The notes: generated by a model not told the origin, from the sequence alone. Shown: positions 5,129-61,360, counted from the stretch's first letter. The stretch is DNA of 64,000 nucleotides from Patescibacteria group bacterium (GCA_049322955.1 JBMOPU010000033.1:128784-192783), one strand, 5' to 3'. Translations and numbers: made by a program.

Positions 5129-6835
5129 TTAGCCGAAGGTGAATGCATACAGCTCTATATCCCCGTCAAGAACTTCAAGCTTGAGGATATGTTTGCCTGC
5201 GCTTGGGAGTTTAATAAGCTTATATAACCGGTCGGTGGTTATCTTAACGTTACTTTGCTCAACATCTTCGCCTTTGAACTTCTCGGGGACGGGCACACCG
5301 TCAAGGAAAACGCGGATTCCCCCTTTGGCATCCTCCTTGGGTCGCATGACGAGGAACACCTCTTTTGCCTCAAAGTGATAGGTGAGGGTGGCTCCCGTCT
5401 GCGGCATTGCCCGTTCTCCGCCGATCGTCCATTTGCCCGTGAATGCAAAGCTGTTCCTGGGAAGGATTGCGGGTGCGGAAAATTCCGTGAGAATATCCGG
5501 CCGAACCGGTTCGGGAGAAACAATTCCCGCCATCCGTTCATACCCTAAGTAGGTTTCCGGTGATCTCGTCTCCACGCGGTACGTCGGATTTTCGATCTTT
5601 TCATCAACGGTAGATCCCGCTTCTTTAAGAAGCCTTTGGATCATCTCTTCCGTTTCATCATAGTCGCCCTCACCGAAATGCGTGTAGCGGATTTTTCCGT
5701 TTTTATCGATGAGGTACTTGGCCGGCCAATAACGGTTGGCATACGCCCGCCAGGTTTTATAGTCGTTATCCTGCATGATGGGGTACGTAAGTTCAAAATC
5801 AGCGGCCGCTTTTTTCACGTTATCAAGATCTTTTTCGAACTCGAATTCAGGCGTATGTACGCCGACGATAACAAGTCCCTTGTCTTTATACTTTTCATGC
5901 CATGACCGGATGTAGGGGAGCGTACGAATGCAGTTTATGCAGGTGTACGTCCAGAAATCGACCAGCACCACTTTGCCGCGCAACTCTTGCATGGTGAGGG
6001 GCGCGGAGTTTATCCACTCACCGCCGGCAATAAATTCAGGTGCGTTGCCGTAATTATTCTCTAACAGATCGGTCATCATAGATCCTCCTTTTTGTAAGTC
6101 TGTTAACCGGTTTCGTACCAGTGCATTATCTTCAAGTTGGGTAAGCCCCGTGCCGTATGCGGGAAATTTGTCCAATATAAACGTCTGAAACGCTCGATCC
6201 CAGGAATGATAAATGGCGAATGCGGTAAGGAGCATAAGGATACCGAATGCTTTCTGAATCCGTGCGGTATTTGCCAGTAACCAAGGGTGGTTGGTAAGCA
6301 GTGACCTGCCGCCCAAGGTGATGGCAAGGAGGGGAATTGCCGTCCCTAGGGCGTATGCAAGGGTGATGATGACCGCGTTAAGCCCTACGGTGCTGGTGGC
6401 GGCAAGTGTAATGATAGATGCAAGAATAGGACCGACGCAGGGTGTCCAGAGCAATCCCAAACTCACCCCGACCAATATGCCCGAGAGATACCCGTCAGTT
6501 TGTGTTTGTTTGGGGACAAATGAGGTCACTTTTGAGAAGAATTTTTCCATTGTAATCTGGAACGCCGGGACAAGCAAACTGACGCCGAAAAAGGCGATAA
6601 CAACGACGGCAACGAGCCGCAGGGTATCAGCGGGAAGACCCGTGCTCCGTACTATCGCGGAAAGAAAAAGGGTAAAGAAGGTAAAACTTGCGACAAACCC
6701 GGTGACCACCCCCAACGGCCGGCGTTTGCCTCCCGTGATACTTCCCGAAAGGACCACCGGGAGGATAGGGAGAATACACGGGGAAAGGATGGTAATGAGT
6801 CCGCCGAGAAATGCAAAGAAAATTAGGATAATCAT
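5129..6835 (-). CDS. dipZ: DipZ-like thiol:disulfide interchange protein with a CcdA/DsbD membrane domain, a thioredoxin-like (TlpA/ResA) domain and a C-terminal domain
   Basis: N-terminal polytopic CcdA-type domain with conserved Cys (LSPCILP…WTPCVGP). Thioredoxin fold with WTYTCINC. The C-terminal beta-rich domain matches the architecture of mycobacterial DipZ. Confidence 0.8.
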   Translation of the reverse strand: MIILIFFAFLGGLITILSPCILPILPVVLSGSITGGKRRPLGVVTGFVASFTFFTLFLSAIVRSTGLPADTLRLVAVVVIAFFGVSLLVPAFQITMEKFFSKVTSFVPKQTQTDGYLSGILVGVSLGLLWTPCVGPILASIITLAATSTVGLNAVIITLAYALGTAIPLLAITLGGRSLLTNHPWLLANTARIQKAFGILMLLTAFAIYHSWDRAFQTFILDKFPAYGTGLTQLEDNALVRNRLTDLQKGGSMMTDLLENNYGNAPEFIAGGEWINSAPLTMQELRGKVVLVDFWTYTCINCIRTLPYIRSWHEKYKDKGLVIVGVHTPEFEFEKDLDNVKKAAADFELTYPIMQDNDYKTWRAYANRYWPAKYLIDKNGKIRYTHFGEGDYDETEEMIQRLLKEAGSTVDEKIENPTYRVETRSPETYLGYERMAGIVSPEPVRPDILTEFSAPAILPRNSFAFTGKWTIGGERAMPQTGATLTYHFEAKEVFLVMRPKEDAKGGIRVFLDGVPVPEKFKGEDVEQSNVKITTDRLYKLIKLPSAGKHILKLEVLDGDIELYAFTFG

Positions 6836-20859: not shown

Positions 20860-20900
20860 TACGGGCCTTGCGTTTTCCTGATCTCAGGAATACAAATGGT

Positions 20901-22190
20901 ATGAATTCACTTTTGACTGCGCTTGTTAATAGTTGGAAGTCACCTGAACTGCGAAGGAAAATACTTCTCACCGCACTGATTTTTGTCATATTCCGAATAT
21001 TTGCCCATACTCCGATTCCCGGTATTGATCGGGATAAGCTGGCGCTTCTCTTTTCCCAGAATCAATTTTTGGGGCTTTTGGATATATTTTCTGGAGGAAC
21101 GCTTGTTAATTTTTCGATTCTTGCCTTGGGACTTAATCCGTATATCAATGCTTCCATCGTATTACAGCTTCTGACGATTGTATTTCCGAAACTTGAAGCA
21201 CTCCAAAAGGAAGGCGAATACGGCCGGGAAAAAATCAACCAATATACCCGTTTTCTTGCCGTTCCTCTTGCCGCCATGCAGGCGGTGGGTATGTACGTGT
21301 TATTGCGAAACCAGGGGATTGTCGGCGTTCTCGATCCGTTAACGCTTATCTCCATCGTGCTCACCATGACCGCAGGTACGTTGTTTGTGATGTGGCTCGG
21401 CGAACTCATCACCGAGTACGGGGTGGGTAACGGAATATCGCTTCTTATTTTTGCCGGTATCGTGGGAAGGCTTCCCGTGGTGCTATTCCAAACGGCAAGC
21501 ACGTTCCAACCGGAACAGCTCATGAATATGGTGATATTCGGCGTGGTTGCGCTGGTCGTGATTGCGGGAACCGTATTTATGAATGAGGCGGTGCGTCGTA
21601 TTCCCGTGCATTATGCGCGACGAATCCGCGGCAACCGCATGTACGGAGGCAATACCTCATACCTTCCGCTTCGTGTTAACCAGGCCGGCGTTATTCCCAT
21701 TATCTTTGCGGTCTCGTTAGTGCTTATCCCGTCGCTTTTGGGGGGATTCATGCAACAGCTTAGGAATCCGACGCTTGCCGGTATCGGAAGATTTTTCACG
21801 ACGGCATTTAATCCCGACGGCATTTCCTATAACGTGATTTACTTTTTCCTGGTGCTCGGTTTTACGTATTTTTATACCGCAATTACCTTTAATCCCACAA
21901 AGATAGCCGGAGAAATTCAAAAATACGGCGGCTTTATCCCCGGCATCAGACCGGGAACACCGACGGCAAATTATTTAAACTATATTCTGACAAGAATAAC
22001 GCTTGCGGGCGCATTGTTTTTAGGCGTCTTGGCGGTATTTCCTTCCATAGCACGAAGTATTTCGGGGTTGTCAACGTTACTTGTCGGAGGCACGGGGGTA
22101 TTAATCGTTGTCTCCGTCGTATTGGAAACCGTGAAGGCACTCGAAGCGCAACTTGTCATGCGCAACTATGAGGGTTTCATGGATAAATAG
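20901..22190 (+). CDS. secY: preprotein translocase subunit SecY
   Basis: Ten-TM SecY family. Start chosen at the ATG at 20901. The upstream track start at 20868 is a TTG codon. Confidence 0.9.
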
Positions 22191-22288: not shown

Positions 22289-22834
22289 ATGAAAGTGATA
22301 CTTATCGGTATTCAGGGGTCGGGAAAATCGACACAAGGAAATATTTTAAGCGAGAAATTACACGTGCCGTATTTATCGAGCGGACACATCTTCCGCCAGA
22401 TGTCGCAGGAAAAAACGGCATGGGGAAGATACGTCAAGGAGACACTCAATGCGGGCTTTCTTATCCCGGACGAAAAAGCGATCCCCATCATCGAAGAATA
22501 TCTGGCAAAACCCGAATATAAAAACGGGTATATTCTTGACGGGTTTCCCCGAACCACAAAACAGGCGGAAGACTTTACCAACGGGGTTGATAAGGTCATT
22601 TATCTTAAAGTATCCGATAAGGAAGCGTTATGGCGATTAAGCGGTCGGATTGAAGAAGGAGTACGAGAAGATAACACGCTTCAGGCGATCAGAAACCGTA
22701 TTCAGCTTTTTCATGACGTGACGGAGCCGGTGCTCCATTACTACCGTGATCACGGAAGACTTCTTGAGGTTGATGGCGAGCAATCCATCGAAGAAGTCAC
22801 CTCTAAAATTCTCTCAGGTCTGGGGGTGTCGTGA
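22289..22834 (+). CDS. adk: adenylate kinase (short form, no zinc lid)
   Basis: P-loop GIQGSGKSTQ, NMP-binding and the characteristic fold. Canonical position after secY. Confidence 0.9.
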   Translation: MKVILIGIQGSGKSTQGNILSEKLHVPYLSSGHIFRQMSQEKTAWGRYVKETLNAGFLIPDEKAIPIIEEYLAKPEYKNGYILDGFPRTTKQAEDFTNGVDKVIYLKVSDKEALWRLSGRIEEGVREDNTLQAIRNRIQLFHDVTEPVLHYYRDHGRLLEVDGEQSIEEVTSKILSGLGVS

Positions 22835-23382
22835 AAAAAAACACGTATGTCGCAATCGTGGGGCTTCCCGGTTCCGGGAAGACCGTTGCCGCCCAATTTT
22901 TCCGACTTCGCGGTTTTTCCGTTCTTCGTTTCGGTGATGTCACCGACTCGGGGCTTGCCGAGTTAGGTCTGCCGCTCACCGAAGCCAATGAACGCAAATA
23001 CCGTGAGGAAATACGCGCAAAATTGGGTATGGGTGCGATGGCAATAAAGATCGAACCGCGTATCAGGGAAGCGGAAAAAACTTCGTCCCGTATAGCACTC
23101 GACGGCATGCGGAGTTTTGAAGAATACGTATATCTTAAGGAAAAATTTCCCGGTCTTGTCGTGTTATCGGTGTATGCCTCACCCGCTATCCGCTACGCAC
23201 GGCTTGCCGCACGGAAGGAACGACCGCTTACGCCGACAGAATCACAATCAAGAGATTACGCGGAAATAGAAAATTTACACTCGGGTGGTCCGATTGCCAT
23301 GGCGGATTATGTCATAAAAAATGAAAGTACCCCTGAAGCATTTGAGGCATCTCTTACCGAATTTTTAGCGACACTCTCATGA
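22831..23382 (+). CDS. archaeal-type UPF0200-family P-loop nucleotide kinase (dephospho-CoA-kinase-like/adenylate-kinase-like)
   Basis: Walker A GLPGSGKT, and the blocks ALDGMRSFEE, RYARLAARKER and ADYVIKN match the UPF0200 pattern. Confidence 0.6.
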   Translation: MKKNTYVAIVGLPGSGKTVAAQFFRLRGFSVLRFGDVTDSGLAELGLPLTEANERKYREEIRAKLGMGAMAIKIEPRIREAEKTSSRIALDGMRSFEEYVYLKEKFPGLVVLSVYASPAIRYARLAARKERPLTPTESQSRDYAEIENLHSGGPIAMADYVIKNESTPEAFEASLTEFLATLS

Positions 23383-24152
23383 AATCGGAAAACACCAACC
23401 AAAAAATAACGGCAATGCGGGAAGGGGGCGCGGTGCTCGGCGCCATATTGGATGAACTTCTCGACATCGCGGCTCCGGGAATTGCACTCCTGGAACTTGA
23501 ACAAATCGCACAAAAAAGGATAAAGGCCGCGGGCATGAAACCGTCGTTTTCCACCGTGGCGGATTATCAATGGGCGACCTGCCTGTGTGTGAATGATGTC
23601 ATCGTGCACGGTATTCCCACAAACTATGTGCTTACCGAAGGAGATCTGTTAACGATAGACATAGGTCTAATCAATCGCGGCTATCACACGGATACCGCCT
23701 GGTCAAAAGTTATCGGAGGTCCGGGATACCGGGTAAAACCCGACGTAGAGAAATTTTTGGCTACCGGAAAGGAAGCGCTCCAAAAGGCGATTGGTGAGGC
23801 ACGGCACGGAAATCATGTCGGCCATATATCGAAAATGTTACAGACGATCGTAGAAGGTGCGGGATACGGTATCGTTCGGCCGCTCGTCGGACACGGAGTA
23901 GGGAAAACGCTTCATGAAGAACCGCAAATACCGGGGTTTCTGAAAGGCGCGATAGAAAAAACGCCGAAATTGATAAGCGGCATGACCGTGGCTATTGAAG
24001 TTATCTATACCATGGGAAATCCCACCGTTTATTATCACGAAGACGGTTGGTCGATTGCCACGCGCGACCACTCGCTTTCGGCGGTCTTTGAACAAACCAT
24101 TGCCATAACCGAGAATGAGCCGACTATTCTGACACCCCCGCATGCGGTATGA
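23379..24152 (+). CDS. map: methionine aminopeptidase type I
   Basis: Pita-bread fold with metal ligands (D…D…H…E…E). Canonical position. Confidence 0.9.
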   Translation: MKSENTNQKITAMREGGAVLGAILDELLDIAAPGIALLELEQIAQKRIKAAGMKPSFSTVADYQWATCLCVNDVIVHGIPTNYVLTEGDLLTIDIGLINRGYHTDTAWSKVIGGPGYRVKPDVEKFLATGKEALQKAIGEARHGNHVGHISKMLQTIVEGAGYGIVRPLVGHGVGKTLHEEPQIPGFLKGAIEKTPKLISGMTVAIEVIYTMGNPTVYYHEDGWSIATRDHSLSAVFEQTIAITENEPTILTPPHAV

Positions 24153-24200: not shown

Positions 24201-26204
24201 ATGAAGAAACTTCTTTTGTTTGTCGCATTGCTTCTTATCGTCGTTTCCGGGTATCGCTACACGCAGGGAAAAACAGGATCCGCAGGATCACCAAAGGTGA
24301 AGTTGTATTGGTTTATTCCTGACGGGATGCGTGCAGAACCGGATCTGTTTAATATTTACGCATGGGCAAAGGAAGGGAAGCTCCCCAATATCAAGAGACT
24401 CATGGATCGGGGCACCTACGGGTACTCATATCCTAATTTCCCCAGTCATACTCCGACGAATTTTGCGACGCTTTTAACGGGATCCATGCCGGAGGTCCAT
24501 GGGGTCGATGACGGTCCGATGCGGGAAGTAGGCAAACCGCTGGACGCCGTGGCGGTTCCCGGATTCCGATCGACCGCAAAAAAAGTCGCTCCGATTTGGA
24601 AAACCCTTGAAGAAGCGGGAATGAAGGTTGCCGTCCTATCTGTTCCCGGGAGTACCCCTCCCGAGATTCAAAAAGGAGTGGTCATTCGCGGCCGTTGGGG
24701 AGGATGGGGGGCGGATTTTGCGTCGTTGAACTTTGAAACGCTCGGCGATCTTACCCAACGAAAAAAACAGGGAAGGGCAACCAAGTTGTTCTTTTTCGGA
24801 CCCCAGCTTACCCAGTATATCGATAGTGTTGCACCCACCGGGTGGGAAAATCCGCCGATGAGTTTTTCTGATGCATCTGAAGTCACGCTTACCGGTTGGG
24901 GAACGCCGGTGTATGCCTATATCTATGACAGTACCAATGACGGCAAGAAAAACCCGGATCATGTACTCTTTTCGCTCGATAAAAAAACACCCCTCGGTGA
25001 TATCACTCCCGGTAGTTGGACCGACTGGCATCCGATCACCCTTACCTGGAAAACGGCGGATGCCGCAGTACCCGTCGCTTCGCATGTAAAAGCGGGTGTC
25101 ATAAAGCTGGGAGATAACGGTTTCTTCCGGATGCGGCTTTTGTATGACGCCTTAAACAAGAATATTACGTTCCCGGAAACCGCCGCTGACGTACTGCAAA
25201 AATCCGTGGGTCCCATGACCGATTTTGCAGACAATTTCCCTGCCCAGCTTATTTACTATCCGGAAGATAAGAAAGCGTTTATGGATGAGGCAAAATTATC
25301 CTTTGATTGGCATACCAAAGCGGTGGGAACGATGGTGAAAAACTTCACCCCCGATGTCGTTATTCATGATATCTACACGCCAAACCAAATGCTTACGAGT
25401 AAGTGGTGGATGGGCGGCATTGATCCCAAGAGCGCAACGTACAATACGATGGCTTCCGCGGATCGGGAAAAGCTTTGGCGTGAGGTGCAGGATATGTATG
25501 TGAATCTCGACACGATGGTCGGTGAAATTCTCAAGGTAGCCGATGCCAACACCTACATCGTGGTGAGTAGTGATCACGGTGCTGTTCCGCTTGATAGAAG
25601 CGTGAATCTTAACAATGTGTTTGCGAAGAAAGGGTGGTTGAAGTTTGCGATCGATCCCAAGACCGGGGAGCCGATTATTGATTGGGAGAAATCAACGGTA
25701 ATGTACCTCAAAATGGCACATGTCTACGTCAATCCAAACGGACTTGCCGGCAAATATACCCGGGCAAGCGGTCCCGCCTATGACGCATTGCGAAACGAGG
25801 TTATCGAAACGCTGAACAATCTTGCCGATGAAAACGGAACAAAGCCCGTCGTTGATATCGTCAAATGGGAAGATGCAAAGGCATATATGCAACTTGATCC
25901 CGATAGGATCGGAGATCTTGTCGTCGCCAATGCTCCCGGCTACGGATGGAATGAGGAAATGACCGCCGATCTTGCCTTCTTCTCTGTTCCCTCTGTCGCG
26001 GGATACAAACAGGCGATCAAAGCAATAGATGTTCCCGGTATGTGGACGCCGTTTATTATGGCGGGTCCGGGTATAAAGAAAAATAATTTTTTGGGGGACA
26101 AGCCGTTCTCGCTTATCCAACAATACCCCACCATCATGAAAGCGCTGGGAGTTGAGATACCGACGTTTGTTCAGGGGAAGCCGCTTGAAATATTCGGCAG
26201 ATAA
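24201..26204 (+). CDS. alkaline-phosphatase-superfamily nucleotide pyrophosphatase/phosphodiesterase (NPP/type I phosphodiesterase)-like ecto-enzyme with an N-terminal anchor
   Basis: FIPDGMRAE, a Thr-nucleophile block SHTPTNFATLLTGSMPEVHG and the SSDHG metal motif, all typical of the NPP family. 667 aa with a long C-terminal extension. Confidence 0.7.
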   Translation: MKKLLLFVALLLIVVSGYRYTQGKTGSAGSPKVKLYWFIPDGMRAEPDLFNIYAWAKEGKLPNIKRLMDRGTYGYSYPNFPSHTPTNFATLLTGSMPEVHGVDDGPMREVGKPLDAVAVPGFRSTAKKVAPIWKTLEEAGMKVAVLSVPGSTPPEIQKGVVIRGRWGGWGADFASLNFETLGDLTQRKKQGRATKLFFFGPQLTQYIDSVAPTGWENPPMSFSDASEVTLTGWGTPVYAYIYDSTNDGKKNPDHVLFSLDKKTPLGDITPGSWTDWHPITLTWKTADAAVPVASHVKAGVIKLGDNGFFRMRLLYDALNKNITFPETAADVLQKSVGPMTDFADNFPAQLIYYPEDKKAFMDEAKLSFDWHTKAVGTMVKNFTPDVVIHDIYTPNQMLTSKWWMGGIDPKSATYNTMASADREKLWREVQDMYVNLDTMVGEILKVADANTYIVVSSDHGAVPLDRSVNLNNVFAKKGWLKFAIDPKTGEPIIDWEKSTVMYLKMAHVYVNPNGLAGKYTRASGPAYDALRNEVIETLNNLADENGTKPVVDIVKWEDAKAYMQLDPDRIGDLVVANAPGYGWNEEMTADLAFFSVPSVAGYKQAIKAIDVPGMWTPFIMAGPGIKKNNFLGDKPFSLIQQYPTIMKALGVEIPTFVQGKPLEIFGR

Positions 26205-26212
26205 CGAATCGG

Positions 26213-26797
26213 TTATTCATTGCAGGAAAGGGCGTTTATCCTATCCGTGAATTCTTTTTCATGGGAAGTGAATTCCTGCGTTTCCGCAATGAGCTCGAGT
26301 TTGATGAGGAGTGATGATTTCGGACAATACAAAAAACCCATAATCCCCCTATACACCGCCTGATCCTGTGAACAGGAGCCGAATGTCAGACGATTGTTTA
26401 AAAAACCCGTAAAGTAACGGATCCCGTTTGCTTCCGTATAGCGAGGGATATACCGGTCGTCGCAAACGATCGCATCGGAGATTTCCCCGGGGTAAGGAGC
26501 CGGGGCCTTTTCAAAAAGAGCTTTCATGCGCGAGACGGCACCGTCAAGTTCCTGATCCGCTTGTTGTTTCAGCGTTTTTTTTGCTTCAATGCGAAGAAGG
26601 GAAGATGGTGACTCATAGAGCGCGCGATAGGTGTCAGCGGTATCAGCATACTCTTCTTTCAGATGAAATATCGTTCGGTTTGGTATGGTGATGCAAGTGA
26701 GATTTTCACATAGTGATACGGGAGAAATAAATCTGTCGCGGGCAAAAATTGCGAGAGCACCTGCGAGCAAAATATACATGATGACGCGAGTAGTCAT
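26213..26797 (-). CDS. hypothetical protein with an N-terminal TM anchor
   Basis: Open frame with a hydrophobic N-terminus. It is the only minus-strand gene inside the AP-enzyme insertion. No recognisable domain. Confidence 0.4.
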   Translation of the reverse strand: MTTRVIMYILLAGALAIFARDRFISPVSLCENLTCITIPNRTIFHLKEEYADTADTYRALYESPSSLLRIEAKKTLKQQADQELDGAVSRMKALFEKAPAPYPGEISDAIVCDDRYIPRYTEANGIRYFTGFLNNRLTFGSCSQDQAVYRGIMGFLYCPKSSLLIKLELIAETQEFTSHEKEFTDRINALSCNE

Positions 26798-26848
26798 AGG
26801 CGAGTATATATACTATAGTTGACTGTAGCACATTTTTGATTCGTCGCA

Positions 26849-28219
26849 ATGAAATCGTTAGCACTTTCGGTTCGTTTTTTGTACGGTATTCTCGGAGGAG
26901 TCTTTATCCTTTGTTCATTATTGCTTTTTTCTTTTTTTCGCCGCGATGATTCCTCGTTATCCTGTAAAGATTGCAATATCATATTTATTGAAATAGACCC
27001 GCTTCGTGCAGATGCCCTTAAAAGCACCGGAGGAATGAGAGAAGCACCGACGCTTGACGCATTGGCCAAGCGGGGGTATACGTTCACAAATGCCGTTGCC
27101 GCATCGTCCTGGACGTTGCCGTCTGCAATGAGTCTGATGACGGGTGTGTATCCATCACGGCACGGCATCATTAACAAAGAACTTTTGCGTGATTCCCCGA
27201 ATAAGGAAATTATTCCGGCATCACTGCAAGTAACGGCTCCGCATATTACTCCCTTGGTGACACTATTTCGTTCGCACGGATACGCAACCGGCGGTTTTGC
27301 CGGAGGAGCGGCGCTTGATCCCTCCTACGGATTTGCCGACGGCTTTGACGTGTATGAGAGCCCGGGAGATTTTGAGGATATAGCAAGCTCGTCGGCAAAA
27401 GCGATCGACTTTATACGGAAGAATAAAAATAAAAAAATCTTTGTGTTTCTTCACGGATTTGATGTGCACGGGCAATATATGCCCCCGCAAGGGTTGGATA
27501 AGCGGTTTGTTTCTTCTTCCTATAAGGGATCATTGATCGGAAATACGGTTGAACAAAAAGAACTCCGGGAGCAGGGGGTACGTCAGGGGTCAGTCTACAT
27601 CACCGATGATGATGCCATGTTTCTCCGGGCTATTTATGACGAAAAAGTTTCGCTTATGGATGCACGAATCGGGGAATTTCTCGCGGCGTACCATGCATTG
27701 GGATTGGAACAAAAAACCGTTATCGTTTTCAGTTCCCATCATGGAGAAGAATTTTATGAGCATGGGCGAATTGATCACGGTATGACGCTGTATGACGAGG
27801 TCCTCCGGGTACCGCTTATCGTCGTGCTTCCCGGTGGAGCAAAAGGAAAACGCATTGATCGTCAGGTAAGAAATGTTGATATCCTTCCCACTATTCTTGA
27901 TATTGTCGGTATACCAATACCCGCACGCATGGCGGAGTTGATCGACGGAGTAAGCGTGGTTCCTCTTATGCGGGGGAAAGAGTTGAAACTTGATGCCATT
28001 TCGGAAACAAGCTATCGATATGCGACGTTTCAGACTTCACTGAGGGGTGAAAACGGCTGGAAAATTATCTATGACAGGGAACAACAAGTAAAAAAGCTCT
28101 ATCATTACGCGGTCGACCCGGGAGAAGTCAACGACCGGTACGGTCAAAATGAGCCGGCTGAACAATCGTTAGTCAACAGGATACTGCAACACATAAACGG
28201 TGTCGCCGTCAAGCGATGA
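26849..28219 (+). CDS. sulfatase-like alkaline-phosphatase-superfamily hydrolase/transferase, membrane-anchored. Thr replaces the formylglycine Cys/Ser.
   Basis: Sulfatase-fold blocks (IFIEIDPLRADAL; FLHGFDVHGQY; SSHHGEEFYEHG). The signature reads SWTLPSAMSLMTG, with T at the C/S position and A at the R position. Confidence 0.7.
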   Translation: MKSLALSVRFLYGILGGVFILCSLLLFSFFRRDDSSLSCKDCNIIFIEIDPLRADALKSTGGMREAPTLDALAKRGYTFTNAVAASSWTLPSAMSLMTGVYPSRHGIINKELLRDSPNKEIIPASLQVTAPHITPLVTLFRSHGYATGGFAGGAALDPSYGFADGFDVYESPGDFEDIASSSAKAIDFIRKNKNKKIFVFLHGFDVHGQYMPPQGLDKRFVSSSYKGSLIGNTVEQKELREQGVRQGSVYITDDDAMFLRAIYDEKVSLMDARIGEFLAAYHALGLEQKTVIVFSSHHGEEFYEHGRIDHGMTLYDEVLRVPLIVVLPGGAKGKRIDRQVRNVDILPTILDIVGIPIPARMAELIDGVSVVPLMRGKELKLDAISETSYRYATFQTSLRGENGWKIIYDREQQVKKLYHYAVDPGEVNDRYGQNEPAEQSLVNRILQHINGVAVKR

Positions 28220-29840
28220 TATGAAGAACTTCAGACCTTTCCTAGTTATGCTCTTGGGAATCTCGGGAGTTGCCGTTCTGTTGTATGGACGGCAAATTAC
28301 CGAAAGTGTACGCAAAACGTCACTCCTCAACCGTACCATACGACACGCGCTGACGAAGAAACCTCCTTGTCCTGAGTGCAATATTTTGCTGATAAATTTG
28401 GATACCCTGCGTCCGTCCGAGATGCCCTGTTACGGATATTTCCGTGATACGTCTCCCAATTTATGCGCGTATGCGGCGAGTAATCAACGTTTCACTAACT
28501 TTTACACTCAAACCTCCTTTACTCTGGATAGCCATATGTCTATTTTTACCGGCCTATATCCTTCCACGCACCATATGGTTGAAGCGCTCAAGGATTTTTT
28601 GAATCCCGCTATACCGACGCTCGCGAAAACTTTGAAAGACAACGGATATCACACGGTGTGGGCGGGAGTAACCGATGACGTGAACCTTCCGCTTGACCGT
28701 GGTATGGGTACGGGATTTGATGAATTTTATACCTTGGACGGCAAAGAACCGGATTGGGTGAGCAAATACGTAAAACTGCTCCCGAAATTTTTGGAAGATA
28801 AGCCGACGTTTATGTTTCTTCATTCTTACGGAGTGCATTCACCGTATTTGGTAGGAAAGGGGCCGTACCGTTTTCTGACCCGCGTCAAACCGTCCGTTCC
28901 GCTGACGGAAGACGAATTTCAAGCAAAGTCACGCGGATTTTTTGAATTCGTTCTCGCCGAATTTACCGATCGGTTACGCGCAAGCAACACGAAAGAAAGT
29001 AAGGAGCGAAACGGAGCGATCGTACGAGAACTTTCCCGGGCGATACGCGCCAATGATCTGGATAAGGCGGAACAAATCACCTGGGAGTTCCCCGGATACG
29101 AAAGCTATAGCCTCTACATGAGCTGGTACTACCGACAGTTGTCGGAAGTGGGCACCGCCGTCGATGCCGCAACGATTGATTATTTAAAAACGCTGTACGA
29201 TGAACGAATTTATCAGGTGGATCAACAGCTTATGCCTCTTCTCGCCTTTCTTAATCGTCCCGAGGTAAAGAAAAAAACCATCGTTATATTCCTTTCCGAT
29301 AACGGTGAAGAATTTATGGAACACGGATTTTTGGATCACGGATGGAATATCTACAACACGGCGACGCATGCGCCTCTCATTCTTGCCGTTCCGGGGATGA
29401 AGAACGGTGTGCACCATGATTTAGTGCAGGCAATTGATATTATGCCGACGCTTTTGGATTTAGTCGGCATTCCCGCTCAAGGACCGATGGAGGGAATGAG
29501 CATTCTTCCGTTACTGGAAGGTCGGGGATTATCGTATATCGGTGAACGATATCTCATCGGCCAGTATAGCGGGGGTGATATTGTCTCGATACGAAATAAT
29601 CGCTGGAAGATGTACAAAAATACGAGACCTCGTGCTTATGTCGAGCTGTTCGATTTACTGAAAGATCCATTGGAGCAGAATAATGTCTTAGGTGAGCATT
29701 TGGACATAGCGGGGCGTCTGGATGAGGTCCTGACACGTCAATTGAATGCATCGCCCAAATATGCACCAGTTACGGGGGATTTCCCCAGTTGGCTGGATGA
29801 GGAAAAGCGAAATAGCCTCAAAAATGCGGGGTATTTTTAG
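28200..29840 (+). CDS. second sulfatase-like alkaline-phosphatase-superfamily protein (paralog of the preceding gene). Thr is at the nucleophile position.
   Basis: [12 protein letters not shown]; signature [14 protein letters not shown]; [11 protein letters not shown]; [17 protein letters not shown]. It overlaps the upstream paralog by 20 nt. Confidence 0.7.
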
Positions 29841-29855
29841 GCACCAGCAGGCGTG

Positions 29856-29884
29856 TTGACCAATCGGCGATTATAGGGTACAAT
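29856..29884 (+). promoter_or_regulatory. sigma70-like promoter (TTGACC -17- TACAAT) upstream of infA. An 8-bp perfect hairpin follows at 29901-29923.
   Basis: -35 TTGACC at 29856-61. A 17-nt spacer. -10 TACAAT at 29879-84. The hairpin is ttccctct-ctaacta-agagggaa, followed by GTTTGTTGTT. Confidence 0.35.
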
Positions 29885-29938
29885 AAGAGTCTTCAACAAA
29901 TTCCCTCTCTAACTAAGAGGGAAGTTTGTTGTTATAAT

Positions 29939-30157
29939 ATGGCGCATCAGGGGAATATAGAGATAGACGGGGAAGTGGTAGAATGTCTGCCGAATACATT
30001 GTTCCGAGTTAAACTCGCCAATGGCCATATCGTGTTGTGTCATCTTTCGGGGAAAATGCGATTGCATTTCATCCGCATTATGCCGGGTGACCGGGTAAAG
30101 TTGGAGATGACACCGTACGATCCGGCAAAGGGAAGAATTACCTATCGGTTGAAGTAA
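29939..30157 (+). CDS. infA: translation initiation factor IF-1
   Basis: S1-like OB fold (…[31 protein letters not shown]…). Confidence 0.95.
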
Positions 30158-30164
30158 CGATTGT

Positions 30165-30278
30165 ATGAAAGTTCGAGCAAGTATTAAACCAATGTGTAGA
30201 AAATGTAAAATCGTCCGCAGACGAGGACGGGTTTATATCATTTGCGAGAACCCGAAACATAAACAGCGACAAGGATAA
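30165..30278 (+). CDS. rpmJ: 50S ribosomal protein L36 (37 aa, zinc-ribbon form). It is not in the ORF track because it is under 60 aa.
   Basis: Translated by hand as [37 protein letters not shown]. It sits between infA and rpsM as expected. Confidence 0.85.
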
Positions 30279-30286
30279 AAACAACT

Positions 30287-30694
30287 ATGGCACGTATCTC
30301 AGGAGTAGATTTACCGAACGACAAACGTCTTGATATTGCGCTTACCTATCTGTATGGGGTAGGCAGGTCAAACGTAAAACTTATCCTCCAAAAAGCCGAA
30401 CTTGATCCCACTCGACGATTCAAAACATTAACCGACGACGAAGTCAGCAAACTTACCAAAATCATCGAAAAAGAAACGATGGTCGAAGGAGATCTGCGTC
30501 GCGCGGTCGGCGATAATGTAAAGCGACTTATCGAGATCAAATCATATCGCGGTATCCGACACGCACGAAGACTTCCTTCCCGCGGACAGCGGACACGAAC
30601 AAACGCCCGCACCAAGCGCGGAAAGCGTATGACGGTGGGAGCGCTTAAGAAAGAAGATCGCGCAAAGACGGAAACAGCCGCGGCGGCAAAATAA
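30287..30694 (+). CDS. rpsM: 30S ribosomal protein S13
   Basis: MARISGVDLPNDKR… is typical of S13. Confidence 0.95.
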   Translation: MARISGVDLPNDKRLDIALTYLYGVGRSNVKLILQKAELDPTRRFKTLTDDEVSKLTKIIEKETMVEGDLRRAVGDNVKRLIEIKSYRGIRHARRLPSRGQRTRTNARTKRGKRMTVGALKKEDRAKTETAAAAK

Positions 30695-59309: not shown

Positions 59310-59465
59310 AAGCAGGCGCTGATGGTCTGACACACCGGAGCTTTTCGGGGTAATAACCGAGACGGGTACGCCCGTTACAGCAATAAAGAGAAAAAAATAA
59401 GGTGGTACCGCGAATTACCCGTTCGCCCTTATCCTAGTAAGGAGAACGGGTTTATTTGTGGCATA
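59310..59465 (+). promoter_or_regulatory. T-box riboswitch-like leader of aspS. It has the conserved T-box sequence AAGGUGGUACCGCG (59399-59412) and a terminator hairpin (59417-59452) plus a U-run.
   Basis: ataaGGTGGTACCGCGaatt matches the T-box consensus (AGGGUGGNACCGCG). It is followed by acccgttc…gaacgggt TTATTTG. GAC triplets occur upstream. Confidence 0.55.
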
Positions 59466-59476
59466 ATGGAGGATGT

Positions 59477-61360
59477 ATGCGGACACTCGCAATTGAAACG
59501 ACGGCAAAAGTCGGTGAAACAGTTACTCTTCAGGGATGGGTGCTTGCCCGTCGTGATCACGGCAAGATCATGTTTTTGGATCTTCGCGACCGATCGGGGG
59601 TGGTGCAGATGGTCGGCACGAAAACCCTGGGTGATGCGCGTGCTGAAGATGTGATCGAAGTCACCGGATTGGTGAAACAGCGCCCCGATTCTATGGTGAA
59701 CGCCAAGATTCCCACGGGAACCGTCGAATTGGAGATCCAAAGCCTTACCGTGCTTACCCACGCCCATGAAATGCCGTTTCCCATCGATACCGATGGGTAT
59801 GAGGTGAATGAGGAAATACGCACCAAGTATCGGTATCTTGATCTTCGTCGACCCCGGATGGCACACAATATCCGAATGCGCAGTAAGGTAGTAGGGTTTA
59901 TCCGAAACTTTCTGTATGAACGGGATTTCGTGGAGATAGAAACCCCGATTTTAACCAAAACAACTCCCGAAGGTGCTCGGGACTTCCTGGTGCCGTCACG
60001 ATTACAACCGGGAAAATTTTACGCTTTACCGCAATCACCACAGCAATACAAACAAATGCTTATGGTAGCCGGCATGGAACGGTACTTTCAAATCGCCCGT
60101 TGTTTCCGCGATGAAGATCCCCGCAGGGATCGCGCGTACGGAGAATTTACCCAGCTCGACATGGAACTTTCCTTTGTCACGCAAAATGACATCCTTGAAC
60201 TTATTGAGGAGATGTTCACGAAACTCGTCACGACGATGTTCCCGGAAAAACACATCAGCGTTTCCCCTTGGCCGCGGCTTTCACATAAGGAAGTCATGGA
60301 TAAGTATGGTACCGACAAACCGGACTTACGCAAGGATAAAAACGATCCGAATGAACTCGCATTTTCATGGACGATTGATTTCCCATTGTTTAATGAACAA
60401 AAAGAGGATGACTTTTTTTACGGTTCCGGCAAAGCGAAATTTGCTCCCAGCCACCATATGTTCACCGCTCCTCATCCTGACGATATTCCTCTTTTGGATA
60501 CCGATCCCATGAGGGTTCGCGGACTACAGCATGATCTTGTATTAAACGGGTTTGAGGTCGGAGGTGGCAGTATCCGTATTCATCAGGCGGAGGTGCAGGC
60601 CAAGGTTTTTGACCTCATCGGTTTTACGGAGGCGCAAAAACAGGAGTTTTCCCATATGCTTACGGCATTCACATATGGTGTTCCGCCGCACGGAGGGATT
60701 GCTCCCGGTATAGATCGGTTTTTAATGACGATTCTTGGCGAACCGAGTGTGCGTGAAGTCATGGCGTTTCCCACGTCGGCTTCTGGTACGACCAGCGTTA
60801 TGGATGCGCCGAGTCTTGCTACTCCTGAACAGCTCAGCGAGCTTTCGATCGCCGTTTTGAAAAATGAGGTGCAGAAGCCGGCAAGTGGGGAAGCGGTATA
60901 TGAAAAAATCATCGAAGGATTGAATCAAAAAAAGTTTTCATTTGAGCCGTACGAGCATGTTGCGGTCAAAACGTCGGAAGAAGCCGCAAAGGTTCGCAAC
61001 ACGCCGCTTCGCGAAGGAGCCAAAGCACTGCTTTTGTATGCGGATGACAAACCCGTCATGGTGGTTGTGGCAGGCGACAGAAAACTCGATATGAAGGCCT
61101 TCAAAGCACTCTATCACGTTCGCGATCTTCGCATGGCGACACCGAAGGAAGTTGAAGAAGTAACCGGAGTTACGATCGGCGCGGTACCTCCGTTTGGGCA
61201 TCTTTTCGGCATAGCGCTGTATATGGATGCGGCGATAAAAACCAATACGCATGTGTCCTTTAACGCGGGACTTCATACCAAATCCGTTCGTATGAAGGAA
61301 ACCGATTACGAGAAGTTTGCAAGTCCCACGATCGGTGAGTTTTCCAAAGAAGCGGTATGA
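59477..61360 (+). CDS. aspS: aspartyl-tRNA synthetase lacking the bacterial GAD insertion domain, fused to a C-terminal YbaK/ProX-type aminoacyl-tRNA deacylase domain of about 165 aa
   Basis: Anticodon-binding OB fold. Class II motifs (FRDEDPRRDR; GGGSIRIH; GIDRFLM). There is no GAD domain between GTDKPDLR and WTIDFPLF. The C-terminal 165 aa align with YbaK (KKFSFEPYEH…; VTGVTIGAVPPFG). Confidence 0.9.
   Translation: MRTLAIETTAKVGETVTLQGWVLARRDHGKIMFLDLRDRSGVVQMVGTKTLGDARAEDVIEVTGLVKQRPDSMVNAKIPTGTVELEIQSLTVLTHAHEMPFPIDTDGYEVNEEIRTKYRYLDLRRPRMAHNIRMRSKVVGFIRNFLYERDFVEIETPILTKTTPEGARDFLVPSRLQPGKFYALPQSPQQYKQMLMVAGMERYFQIARCFRDEDPRRDRAYGEFTQLDMELSFVTQNDILELIEEMFTKLVTTMFPEKHISVSPWPRLSHKEVMDKYGTDKPDLRKDKNDPNELAFSWTIDFPLFNEQKEDDFFYGSGKAKFAPSHHMFTAPHPDDIPLLDTDPMRVRGLQHDLVLNGFEVGGGSIRIHQAEVQAKVFDLIGFTEAQKQEFSHMLTAFTYGVPPHGGIAPGIDRFLMTILGEPSVREVMAFPTSASGTTSVMDAPSLATPEQLSELSIAVLKNEVQKPASGEAVYEKIIEGLNQKKFSFEPYEHVAVKTSEEAAKVRNTPLREGAKALLLYADDKPVMVVVAGDRKLDMKAFKALYHVRDLRMATPKEVEEVTGVTIGAVPPFGHLFGIALYMDAAIKTNTHVSFNAGLHTKSVRMKETDYEKFASPTIGEFSKEAV

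Follow-up and report, generated by a model that had tools for sequence, protein, structure and literature searches.

Genes at the map-infA junction

In the stretch of DNA analyzed here (referred to as the window, 64 kb in full), which comes from a Gottesmanbacteria (Patescibacteria) genome, four genes (ORF A, hyp, ORF B, and ORF C) lie between map and infA in an inserted block of ~5.7 kb. This arrangement raises two questions: whether the position next to genes for the translation machinery bears on what the four genes do, and what that function might be. All of the ORFs that an earlier, sequence-only reading had reported were present in the window where it had placed them. The genes and possible signals are as follows.

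23379..24152, plus strand: map (methionine aminopeptidase), PF00557 Peptidase_M24, E 4e-33; upstream border of the insertion
24201..26204, plus strand: ORF A, 667 aa, anchored NPP/PhnA-like alkaline-phosphatase-superfamily enzyme, PF01663 Phosphodiest
26213..26797, minus strand: hyp, 194 aa, anchored PsbP/Mog1-like protein by predicted fold; no Pfam or NCBIfam match
26798..26848, no strand assigned: divergent hyp/ORF B intergenic region, 51 bp, overlapped by a promoter-like site (26791-26819, plus strand; consensus match only)
26849..28219, plus strand: ORF B, 456 aa, anchored sulfatase-fold protein, PF00884 and SGSH_C
28221..29840, plus strand: ORF C, 539 aa from the ATG at 28221, anchored sulfatase-fold paralogue, PF00884 and SGSH_C
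29901..29923, no strand assigned: hairpin with a 9-bp stem in the ORF C/infA gap (pattern match only)
29939..30157, plus strand: infA (IF-1), PF01176, E 8e-27; downstream border
30165-30278, plus strand: rpmJ, 37 aa, 3' of infA
30287-30694, plus strand: rpsM, 3' of rpmJ

The locus protein was found on seven contigs. At the five places shown, which come from five different sequencing runs, the gene order was identical, which rules out an assembly chimera. Recent horizontal acquisition in the lineage of the window was also rejected because the GC content of the insert was the same as that of its flanks in a composition scan of the window and because the arrangement has been kept across a diverged clade.

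The stops of the convergent pair ORF A and hyp are 8 bp apart, and the starts of the divergent pair hyp and ORF B are 51 bp apart. Promoter- and terminator-like sites recovered in a pattern scan of the block were no more common than in shuffled sequences, and thus no operon structure can be claimed from the scan. Of the promoter-like sites in the scanned region, the one with the best match (TTGACC-17-TACAAT, 29856-29884) was 5' of the hairpin at 29901..29923. With candidate sites at the shuffle level and the block split by the antisense hyp gene, the earlier notion of a single transcription unit was not borne out.

Position between map and infA

The insertion was found in only one Gottesmanbacteria sub-clade (loci L006-L012, L050, and L086-L088, with map at least 64% identical). 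The next-closest sampled lineages, L089 (secY 76% and map 55% identical) and L090, had infA directly after map, which agrees with the earlier view that the block was inserted into a junction that is normally contiguous. The two genes were also adjacent in at least nine more distant lineages. In other Gottesman-, Woese-, Levyi-, Collier-, and Paceibacteria, the same genes occurred together, and no ribosomal-protein gene lay within 10 kb of them. The map-infA position is derived and lineage-specific: it arose once in the Gottesmanbacteria sub-clade and was then retained.

The sequence-only reading had proposed that the enzymes are coupled to, and coexpressed with, the translation machinery, and it had named the occurrence of the same genes elsewhere in relatives with map-infA intact as the pattern that would speak against this. 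Essentially that pattern was found. Because the insertion is confined to one sub-clade, relatives have map-infA intact, and the genes lie elsewhere in other lineages, coupling to translation is unsupported. The operon position is best read as a lineage-specific accident or insertion, not as a link to translation. There is only a very slim chance that the placement is functional, so that the ecto-enzymes would be expressed in step with growth rate and translation. In favor of such a role, the arrangement was kept across a clade in which map diverged to 64% identity, and just 48 bp, without a terminator-like site, separate map from ORF A. However, the antisense hyp gene would break any single transcript, and the best promoter-like match is directly upstream of infA. 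One Parcubacteria genome (L063) independently has hyp, ORF A, and a sulfatase-like gene directly 3' of map, but two junctions among ~70 lineages are weak evidence when most carriers have the cassette away from ribosomal-protein genes and close relatives retain the uninterrupted junction.

ORF A resembles phosphodiesterases of the NPP type

ORF A matched the Pfam family PF01663 (Phosphodiest) with 106.8 bits (cut-off, 23; E 2e-30). In alignments to solved structures, T84 was placed on the nucleophile Thr of ENPP1, D41 on its metal-binding Asp, N87 on its phosphate-binding Asn, and the motif S-S-D-H-G (D458 and H459) on I-S-D-H-G of ENPP1. Residues D41, H83, T84, N87, D458, and H459 were invariant in 29 ORF A homologues from bacteria and archaea. 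T84 is the predicted nucleophile, and D41, D458, and H459 are predicted metal ligands.

ORF A has in common with NPP and other PF01663 proteins (ENPP1, Xanthomonas NPP, PhnA, and PafA) the D…T-x-x-N block with its Thr nucleophile, the S-D-H-G metal block, and an extracytoplasmic location, which is predicted for ORF A. In contrast to these proteins, ORF A has an insert of ~250 residues that separates the two conserved blocks and is accompanied by a small partner gene (hyp, in 52 of 80 loci). Scores against the NCBIfam equivalogs were far below the cut-offs (PhnA, 23.8 versus 407; PafA, 19.3 versus 650).

A further difference concerns the metal site. The NPP Zn1 ligands (Asp-x3-His plus a C-terminal His) were not recovered in ORF A in sub-region profile-to-PDB alignments. 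Region 375-520 aligned to PDB profiles only around S-S-D-H-G, and the Zn1 His of PafA fell in a PafA-specific insertion when PafA was aligned with ORF A. The best alignment of the C-terminal segment was to PMH/sulfatases. ORF A may be mononuclear, and not NPP-like in specificity, because the Zn1 ligands were not found and the C-terminal segment is nearest to PMH/sulfatases. The structure model of ORF A, built from a 16-sequence alignment, was poor (pLDDT 58), and a fold search with it returned nothing significant (top match PhnA, E 0.02).

ORFs B and C are sulfatase-fold proteins with a predicted threonine nucleophile

ORFs B and C both matched PF00884 (Sulfatase) in Pfam (B, 110 bits, E 1e-31; C, 124 bits, E 1e-35; cut-off, 25) and the C-terminal subdomain SGSH_C (56 and 61 bits, respectively; cut-off, 29). 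They are paralogues (29% identity, E 2e-45), with ORF C longer by ~90 residues. Their top overall matches were S1 sulfatases (E ~1e-22), namely the GALNS-like 7stt and the choline sulfatase 6fny. Thus, with Pfam thresholds passed, the families assigned in the sequence-only reading, NPP/Phosphodiest-like for ORF A and sulfatase-fold paralogues for ORFs B and C, stand.

ORFs B and C resemble S1 sulfatases and PMH in having two subdomains and in the first metal Asp. However, HMMER alignments placed Thr89 of ORF B (W-T-L-P-S-A; aligned to 7stt) and the Thr of F-T-L-D-S-H in ORF C (aligned to 6fny) on the Cys/formylglycine column of the sulfatase motif C-x-P-x-R, and the Arg column of the motif was occupied by Ala in ORF B and His in ORF C. 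Together with T84 of ORF A, these alignments confirm the proposal that all three enzymes have Thr in place of Cys/Ser on the catalytic column. Thr was also at the nucleophile position in all 120 of the database homologues of ORF B that were listed and in 85 of 97 cassette-linked genes of the ORF B family. The downstream metal pair in this family is mostly D-H, as in the phosphoryl-transfer members, rather than the D-N of sulfatases. ORF C retains D-N, and ORF B itself has H-H, so that with His at the expected metal-binding Asp it may have altered activity or none.

In LtaS, EptA/MCR-1, CptA, OpgB, and YejM, the nucleophile is Thr, the metal site is of the type D/E…T…D-H, and the active site lies outside the membrane. 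The ORF B family resembles these transferases in the Thr nucleophile and, for most members, in the D-H site. In contrast, the transferases have a polytopic (~5-TM) N-terminal domain and no SGSH_C, whereas ORFs B and C each have one anchor helix and SGSH_C.

Thr at the nucleophile position excludes formylglycine chemistry, as Thr is not convertible to formylglycine (PMC5066984). No gene for a maturation enzyme (FGE or anSME) was found within the 64-kb window, in which the sole radical-SAM gene was MiaB-like. The active sites are not as unusual as had been suggested, since Thr in place of Cys/Ser is already documented in PF00884, in 30 of 59 Pfam seed sequences (SulfAtlas, PMC5066984). For annotation, it is relevant that the large Thr-nucleophile subgroup labeled "sulfatase" cannot consist of formylglycine sulfatases.

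A hydropathy scan gave one N-terminal hydrophobic segment, and no other, for ORF A (residues 1-22), hyp, and ORF B. The result for ORF C depended on the start codon. The options are GTG at 28200 (546 aa), ATG at 28221 (539 aa), and ATG at 28248 (530 aa). The anchor segment is whole with either of the first two, but from 28248, the start of the 530-aa call in public assemblies, the anchor is cut off and no hydrophobic window passes. The start at 28221, 1 nt past the ORF B stop, is more plausible than GTG 28200. With either of these upstream starts for ORF C, the earlier prediction of N-terminal anchors on all three enzymes was upheld, and the anchors point to an extracytoplasmic location of the active sites, which had been described as extracellular.

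hyp is a conserved partner of ORF A

The minus-strand gene hyp belongs to the conserved core of the cassette, as the partner of ORF A; the sequence-only reading had mentioned the gene but had not recognized this status. When 35 hyp homologues were scanned against Pfam, nothing above noise was found, and the family, for which there is no Pfam model, comprises 910 clusters at E<=1e-3. The protein carries an invariant P-Y-P-G-x-x-[S/T] loop and conserved cysteines. An AF2 model of hyp had a pLDDT of 90.7 and was least confident at the invariant loop (residues 101-110). The Foldseek matches of the model were PsbP, LpqN, DcrB, and MTC28 (E 3e-4 to 1e-2; probability, ~1.0), at a TM of only 0.40-0.47, an rmsd of ~7 Å, and 5-12% identity. 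A PsbP/Mog1-like fold is predicted for hyp from this model. The likeness to PsbP/CyanoP, LpqN, DcrB, and MTC28 lies in the predicted α/β-sandwich; like hyp, which is membrane anchored, the last three are extracytoplasmic envelope proteins. hyp differs from PsbP/Mog1-like proteins in the low structural and sequence similarity (TM ~0.45), in having no sequence-family match to them, and in its own PYPGxx[S/T] loop and cysteine pattern.

The inserted genes belong to a widespread cassette

Among 80 loci found via ORF A, only three families recurred: ORF A (79 loci), sulfatase-like genes (54), and hyp (52). For loci with at least 4 kb on both flanks, 45 of 53 had at least one of three partners within 3 kb: hyp, a sulfatase-like gene, or an ASST-like gene. 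ORF A, hyp, and the Thr-"sulfatase" were linked across Patescibacteria, DPANN archaea, Omnitrophota, Planctomycetota, and others. The inserted block is a single instance of a widespread and self-contained cassette, whose distribution reaches far beyond the lineage of the window. What is newly recognized here is hyp as a core component and its linkage across phyla with ORF A and the Thr-"sulfatase"; no description of the cassette was found in the literature on Patescibacteria/CPR/DPANN sulfatases, phosphodiesterases, COG3379, or the Gottesmanbacteria ribosomal operon.

ORF A is at least 48% identical across both domains, and its distribution is patchy. Searches of known plasmids gave a single partial match (26%, on a Halopiger plasmid) and no full-length homologue, and none was found in known phages; thus a mobile-element carrier was not demonstrated.

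The genomes of Patescibacteria and DPANN archaea are very small, and these organisms are believed to rely on material from a host or the environment. The cassette is surface exposed, it is conserved across both domains, and one of its core components belongs to no described family. It is therefore a testable candidate for machinery of acquisition or surface interaction.

The neighbors of the cassette vary. Sulfatase-like genes are repeated in tandem, with as many as five copies at L038. Uptake genes (for an NMT1-type binding protein, an ABC permease and ATPase, and an SBF permease) lie beside the cassette in some distant loci, NitT/TauT-type binding proteins and ABC genes adjoin ORF A in several loci, and one protein fuses an NMT1 binding domain to a hyp domain. 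In nine loci labeled Omnitrophota, Bacteroidota, or similar, an ASST-like propeller (PF05935/PF14269) replaces the sulfatase-like gene beside ORF A and hyp, and one locus (L069) has two PAPS-type sulfotransferases. These propellers and sulfotransferases give the distant loci a sulfur flavor, which counts against scavenging. Neither uptake genes nor sulfur-related neighbors were found in the lineage of the window. GT4 glycosyltransferases and NAD-epimerases are near the cassette in several Patescibacteria loci, a setting as compatible with envelope biosynthesis as with scavenging.

Possible functions of the cassette

The best explanation for these results, put forward tentatively and with somewhat less than an even chance of being right, is that the block is an extracytoplasmic scavenging cassette for the metal-dependent cleavage of phospho(di)esters. 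A single N-terminal helix would anchor each enzyme on the outer side of the membrane, and in each a metal-activated Thr would form a covalent phospho-enzyme intermediate that is then hydrolyzed. Phosphomonoester or phosphodiester groups would be cleaved from a substrate that is external or associated with the envelope, and the products would be taken up. hyp would bind or present substrate or product, or organize the enzymes. We infer hydrolysis rather than transfer, and phosphate rather than sulfate esters as the target. Hydrolysis with scavenging is preferred to transfer because ORFs B and C have a single transmembrane helix instead of the polytopic domain of LtaS/EptA, because they keep the sulfatase-type SGSH_C subdomain, because sulfatase-like genes form tandem arrays, and because some distant loci have adjacent uptake genes or, in one protein, an NMT1-hyp fusion.

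It is unlikely, but to an appreciable degree possible, that the cassette modifies the cell envelope. ORFs B and C, and perhaps ORF A, would then be transferases like LtaS, EptA, or OpgB that use the same phospho-Thr intermediate to move a headgroup (phosphoglycerol, phosphoethanolamine, or phosphocholine) from a donor, whether a lipid or not, to a cell-surface polymer or protein. The invariant exposed loop of hyp could be the acceptor site. Although a Thr nucleophile with a D-H metal pair is that of the transferase branch of PF00884, ORFs B and C are without the N-terminal domain that defines the lipid-donor transferases and are far more similar overall to hydrolytic S1 sulfatases and PMH. The NCBIfam similarity to LtaS, CptA, EptA, and YejM is weak, 15-32 bits against cut-offs of ~400-1200, and the glycosyltransferases near several Patescibacteria loci are neighbors in just ~11 of 80 loci.

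Metabolism of sulfur esters, in which the sulfatase-fold proteins or ASST-like propellers would handle the sulfuryl groups of sulfated or sulfonated compounds while ORF A hydrolyzes an associated phospho-sulfate or phosphodiester, is distinctly unlikely. Alkaline-phosphatase-superfamily enzymes with a Ser/Thr nucleophile hydrolyze sulfate esters only promiscuously and poorly. The closest overall matches of ORFs B and C are genuine S1 sulfatases, and the C-terminal segment of ORF A also aligns best to PMH/sulfatases, but the Arg of C-x-P-x-R is missing, Thr cannot be converted to formylglycine (PMC5066984), and the window has no FGE/anSME gene. The ASST-like replacements in nine loci, the sulfotransferases of L069, and the NitT/TauT-type binding proteins and ABC genes beside ORF A would fit sulfur-ester metabolism; however, sulfur-related neighbors are absent from the lineage of the window. 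There is also a slim chance that ORF A, hyp, and the Thr-"sulfatase" or ASST-like protein are an undescribed extracytoplasmic group-transfer system, with the invariant, flexible PYPGxx[S/T] loop of hyp as the dedicated acceptor or carrier of a phospho- or sulfo-group, that spread horizontally among ultrasmall symbionts (Patescibacteria, DPANN, and Omnitrophota) and serves interaction with the host surface or uptake of host metabolites.

Gene content of the locus

The six-frame ORF list of the window, in which rpsE and rplO were also listed on the forward strand, gave this order around map and infA:

20868-22190, +, secY
22289-22834, +, adk
22831-23382, +, extra AAA_18 kinase-like gene (183 aa) between adk and map, with a 4-nt overlap with each
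23379-24152, +, map
24201-26204, +, ORF A (667 aa), PF01663 Phosphodiest, E 2e-30
26213-26797, -, hyp (194 aa)
26849-28219, +, ORF B (456 aa), PF00884 Sulfatase, E 1e-31, plus SGSH_C
28200-29840, +, ORF C (546 aa from GTG), PF00884 Sulfatase, E 1e-35, plus SGSH_C
29939-30157, +, infA
30165-30278, rpmJ (37 aa), directly after infA, with rpsM next

The block genes and their arrangement are genuine. The protein occurred on 7 contigs, and the 5 places examined, each from a different sequencing run, agreed in gene order. The ORF list, the Pfam matches, and this identical order bear out the sequence-only reading that genes lie between map and infA, and the HMM search that it proposed assigned ORF A to PF01663 and both ORF B and ORF C to PF00884 with SGSH_C. 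The GC content of the block (0.44-0.53) was the same as that of the flanks. ORF B and ORF C are paralogues (29% identity, E 2e-45), with about 90 additional residues in ORF C. The kinase-like gene had weak similarity to archaeal-type (d)CMP kinase and PRK08356. The remaining genes have housekeeping functions (rpoC, ribosomal proteins, recA, RNase Y, miaB/miaA, secDF, cca, recJ, and aspS), and no FGE or anSME gene was found in the 64-kb window. The 634-aa product of aspS (59456-61360, +) combines the class II core with a C-terminal YbaK/ProX-type tRNA_edit domain (PF04073, E 1e-30); we know of no description of an aspartyl-tRNA synthetase fused to such a domain.

A cassette conserved across phyla

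A profile scan with ORF A, over one genome per species, confirmed 245 loci, and the analysis went on with the 80 best. When the ORFs of these best 80 of 245 loci were clustered, just three families recurred: ORF A was found in 79 loci, hyp in 52 (54 genes), and sulfatase-like genes in 54 (97 genes). Every other family was limited to at most 13 loci. In the subset of 53 loci that had at least 4 kb on both flanks, the 3 kb on either side of ORF A contained hyp in 31 loci, a sulfatase-like gene in 37, and an ASST-like gene in 5, and 45 loci had one or more of the three; these counts are lower bounds because the ORF caller missed some genes found by tblastn. Nine loci with labels such as Omnitrophota or Bacteroidota (L051, L055, L058, L060, L061, L062, L066, L070, and L077) had an ASST-like arylsulfotransferase β-propeller gene (PF05935/PF14269) in place of the sulfatase-like gene beside ORF A and hyp, which suggests that the third component of the cassette is interchangeable.

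Other Pfam-checked neighbours were B12-binding radical-SAM genes (12 loci), GT4 glycosyltransferases (11 loci, mostly Patescibacteria), and an ABC ATPase, permease, and NMT1-type binding protein; an NAD-epimerase-like family, assigned by eye, was found in 7 loci, mostly Patescibacteria. In four proteobacterial or Bdellovibrio-like loci (L067, L069, L081, and L085), an SBF-family permease gene (PF01758, sodium/bile-acid symporter-like, about 305 aa) adjoined ORF A immediately upstream on the opposite strand, and ABC permease and ATPase genes came next; L069 also had two PAPS-type sulfotransferase genes. None of these radical-SAM, GT4, epimerase, ABC/NMT1, SBF, or sulfotransferase neighbours was present in the window.

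ORF A was 64-91% identical across the 120 best database clusters and 48-60% identical in DPANN archaea (Woesearchaeota, Nanoarchaeota), Omnitrophota, Planctomycetota, Bacteroidota, Verrucomicrobiota, Bacteriovorax, and Desulfobulbaceae. This conservation is unusual. Some Patescibacteria copies (48-53%) were further from the ORF A of the window than archaeal copies were (57-60%), a pattern that speaks for horizontal spread. A search of known plasmids and phages gave no full-length homologue.

Position between map and infA

When window proteins were compared by tblastn with the best 80 of 245 loci, the order secY-adk-(kinase)-map-A-hyp(−)-B-C-infA-rpsM was found only in L006 to L012 and L050, which are Gottesmanbacteria loci with ORF A at least 73% identical; L012 had an additional copy of ORF C. 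Searching metagenomes with the map protein added L086 to L088 to the loci with the insertion. In the next-closest lineages, L089 and L090, infA directly followed map, as it did in at least nine further, more distant lineages. L089 (secY 76% and map 55% identical to the window) has the extra kinase gene and no cassette, and the kinase-like gene is thus older than the insertion. In other Gottesman-, Woese-, Levyi-, Collier-, and Paceibacteria and the rest, the cassette genes had no ribosomal-protein gene within 10 kb, in a check that covered the cassette loci of those genomes. The exception was a Parcubacteria locus, L063 (6619-14210), with the order secY-adk-map-hyp(+)-A-(IS200-like ORF)-sulfatase-like gene. 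The intervening ORF (218 aa) had a below-threshold IS200-like (Y1_Tnp) match, and infA was not downstream of the cassette. Its internal order differs, and L063 is therefore a second, independent case of the cassette joined to the end of the spc operon.

The map-infA placement is best read from this synteny as a lineage-specific insertion. The functional coupling to translation proposed from the sequence alone was not supported: the next-closest lineages have an intact map-infA junction and other lineages have the same genes away from ribosomal neighbours, and the proposal itself had named such an outcome as its refutation.

ORF A and hyp are convergent, with stops 8 bp apart, and hyp and ORF B are divergent, with starts 51 bp apart; the block is therefore not one transcript. 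A site scan gave no excess over shuffled sequence for promoter-like (11 versus 11.1) or terminator-like (12 versus 9.0) sites. The top promoter-like match and a 9-bp hairpin were immediately upstream of infA.

Records L006, L009, L011, L016, and L018 and other 'binchicken' TPA assemblies are titled 'uncultured Gammaproteobacteria bacterium'. They contain Gottesmanbacteria-type ribosomal operons, in which secY reaches 99% identity with that of the window. The organism names of these MAGs look wrong and are unfit for taxonomic distribution.

Active sites

The assignment of ORF A as NPP/type-I phosphodiesterase-like was supported by its PF01663 match and by alignment with ENPP1. In single-sequence and profile alignments, D41, T84, and N87 aligned to the ENPP1 metal Asp, nucleophile Thr, and Asn, and S-S-D458-H459-G fell on I-S-D-H-G; these residues were invariant in 29 homologues from bacteria and archaea. 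ORF A thus has the NPP-like nucleophile block and a complete metal-site-2 set, but the second metal (Zn1) site was not located in profile alignments to solved structures. Region 375-520 aligned only around S-S-D-H-G, and the PafA Zn1 histidine sits within a PafA-specific insertion in the alignment with ORF A. The C-terminal segment is PMH/sulfatase-like, with phosphonate monoester hydrolase 4upk as the top alignment (E 7e-7) and sulfatases also matched. NCBIfam gave only sub-threshold similarity to PhnA and PafA. The AlphaFold model of ORF A was poor (pLDDT 58), and a fold search with it gave no significant match.

The sequence-only reading had Thr in place of the formylglycine Cys/Ser in ORF B and ORF C, and HMMER alignments to GALNS-like 7stt and choline sulfatase 6fny agreed. 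The Thr of ORF B (…SSW-T-L-P-S-A-MSLMTG) and that of ORF C (…[14 protein letters not shown]) fell on the Cys/formylglycine column of C-x-P-x-R, with Ala and His, respectively, on the Arg column. The column was Thr in 120/120 listed database homologues and 85/97 cassette-linked genes (the other 12 had 6 gaps, 4 Ser, and 2 other residues), and Cys was found in none of either set. The metal pair downstream of the Thr was mostly D-H in these sets. D-H is the pair of NPP, LtaS, and EptA, and D-N is that of sulfatases. ORF C kept the first metal Asp and a D-N pair. ORF B and its closest orthologues had His-His at this position (S-S-H-H-G-E, residues about 295-300 of ORF B); the Asp column of the pair was D 75, N 22, H 12, S 7, and G 3 in the 120 listed homologues. 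The metal site of ORF B may be altered, or ORF B may be a non-catalytic paralogue. NCBIfam matches of ORF B and ORF C (arylsulfatase, choline-sulfatase, PehA, LtaS, CptA/EptA, YejM, and STM4013) were all sub-threshold. The Thr-for-Cys/Ser substitution is already known in PF00884 proteins: SulfAtlas found Thr in 30/59 Pfam seed sequences and noted that Thr is unable to give formylglycine (PMC5066984).

Topology and the small anchored protein

Hydropathy gave one hydrophobic 19-residue window, N-terminal and with no second, for each of ORF A, ORF B, and hyp. N-terminal anchors, previously proposed for all three enzymes, hold for ORF C only if it starts at 28200 or 28221. The ATG at 28221 lies 1 nt past the ORF B stop (TGA-T-ATG) and gives the N-terminus [23 protein letters not shown]; if the gene is called from ATG 28248 (530 aa), the anchor is truncated. 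From these anchors we infer that ORF A, ORF B, ORF C, and hyp are probably extracytoplasmic, and the conserved cysteines of hyp are consistent with such a location. Elsewhere in the window, 5129-6835 (-) encodes a 568-aa protein in which a DsbD/CcdA-type membrane domain is fused to AhpC/TSA-redoxin and Thioredoxin_10 domains; this extracytoplasmic thiol-redox system likewise agrees with such a location and would be in keeping with disulfide bonds in surface proteins such as hyp.

The sequence-only reading of hyp as a small anchored hypothetical was right about the anchor and the opposite strand, but hyp is a conserved cassette member. It had no Pfam match, NCBIfam similarities being limited to ORF A, ORF B, and ORF C, and none of 60 word-index homologues had a Pfam domain or informative name. 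Among 1.84 billion cluster representatives, 910 matched a hyp profile at E≤1e-3, and 457 did so at ≤1e-10. Invariant positions include Y50, Y57, R58, P101-Y102-P103, C112, N134, R136, G140, C142, C158, E168, and C192, and the loop across phyla is [P/G]-Y-[P/x]-G-x-x-[S/T]. The confident AlphaFold model (pLDDT 90.7; lowest at the invariant loop, residues 101-110) has an N-terminal helix followed by an α/β sandwich. Its top Foldseek matches (PsbP/CyanoP, LpqN, DcrB, MTC28, Mog1, and Tsi3; E 3e-4 to 1e-2, TM about 0.45) suggest, with modest confidence, a predicted fold in common with PsbP/Mog1-like proteins. Cluster representative P0401 (452 aa) fuses an NMT1/SsuA-type ABC solute-binding domain (40-213) to a hyp domain (299-441), and in P0400 and P0437 the hyp domain is duplicated in tandem.

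Possible function

The cassette combines three anchored alkaline phosphatase (AP)-superfamily proteins, with Thr on the nucleophile column, and a conserved anchored partner, hyp. By analogy with established AP-superfamily enzymes, the Thr of ORF A, ORF B, and ORF C, once activated by metal, would attack a phosphoryl centre and carry the resulting covalent intermediate, which water (hydrolase) or an acceptor (transferase) would resolve.

Hydrolytic scavenging is favoured, although tentatively and at somewhat under even odds, because ORF B and ORF C keep a hydrolase-type C-terminal subdomain, sulfatase-like genes occur in tandem arrays, and in distant lineages the cassette is linked to uptake genes and a binding-protein fusion. 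The single anchor helix of ORF B and ORF C, in contrast to the polytopic domain of lipid-donor transferases, also favours scavenging over envelope phospho-group transfer, which is a distinctly less probable alternative. Sulfur-ester chemistry is unlikelier still; ORF B and ORF C share PF00884 and SGSH_C with S1 sulfatases but have Thr for Cys. True coupling to translation is very improbable, given that the genes lack ribosomal neighbours in most other carriers and that antisense hyp splits the block. Inactive or structural roles, or explanations outside those considered, take the remaining probability.

The superfamilies of ORF A, ORF B, and ORF C are already known. The cross-domain cassette, the PsbP-like partner family of hyp, which has no Pfam model, and the hybrid ORF A, with its NPP-like nucleophile block, PMH/sulfatase-like C-terminal segment, and no detectable Zn1, all appear to be undescribed in the literature searched.
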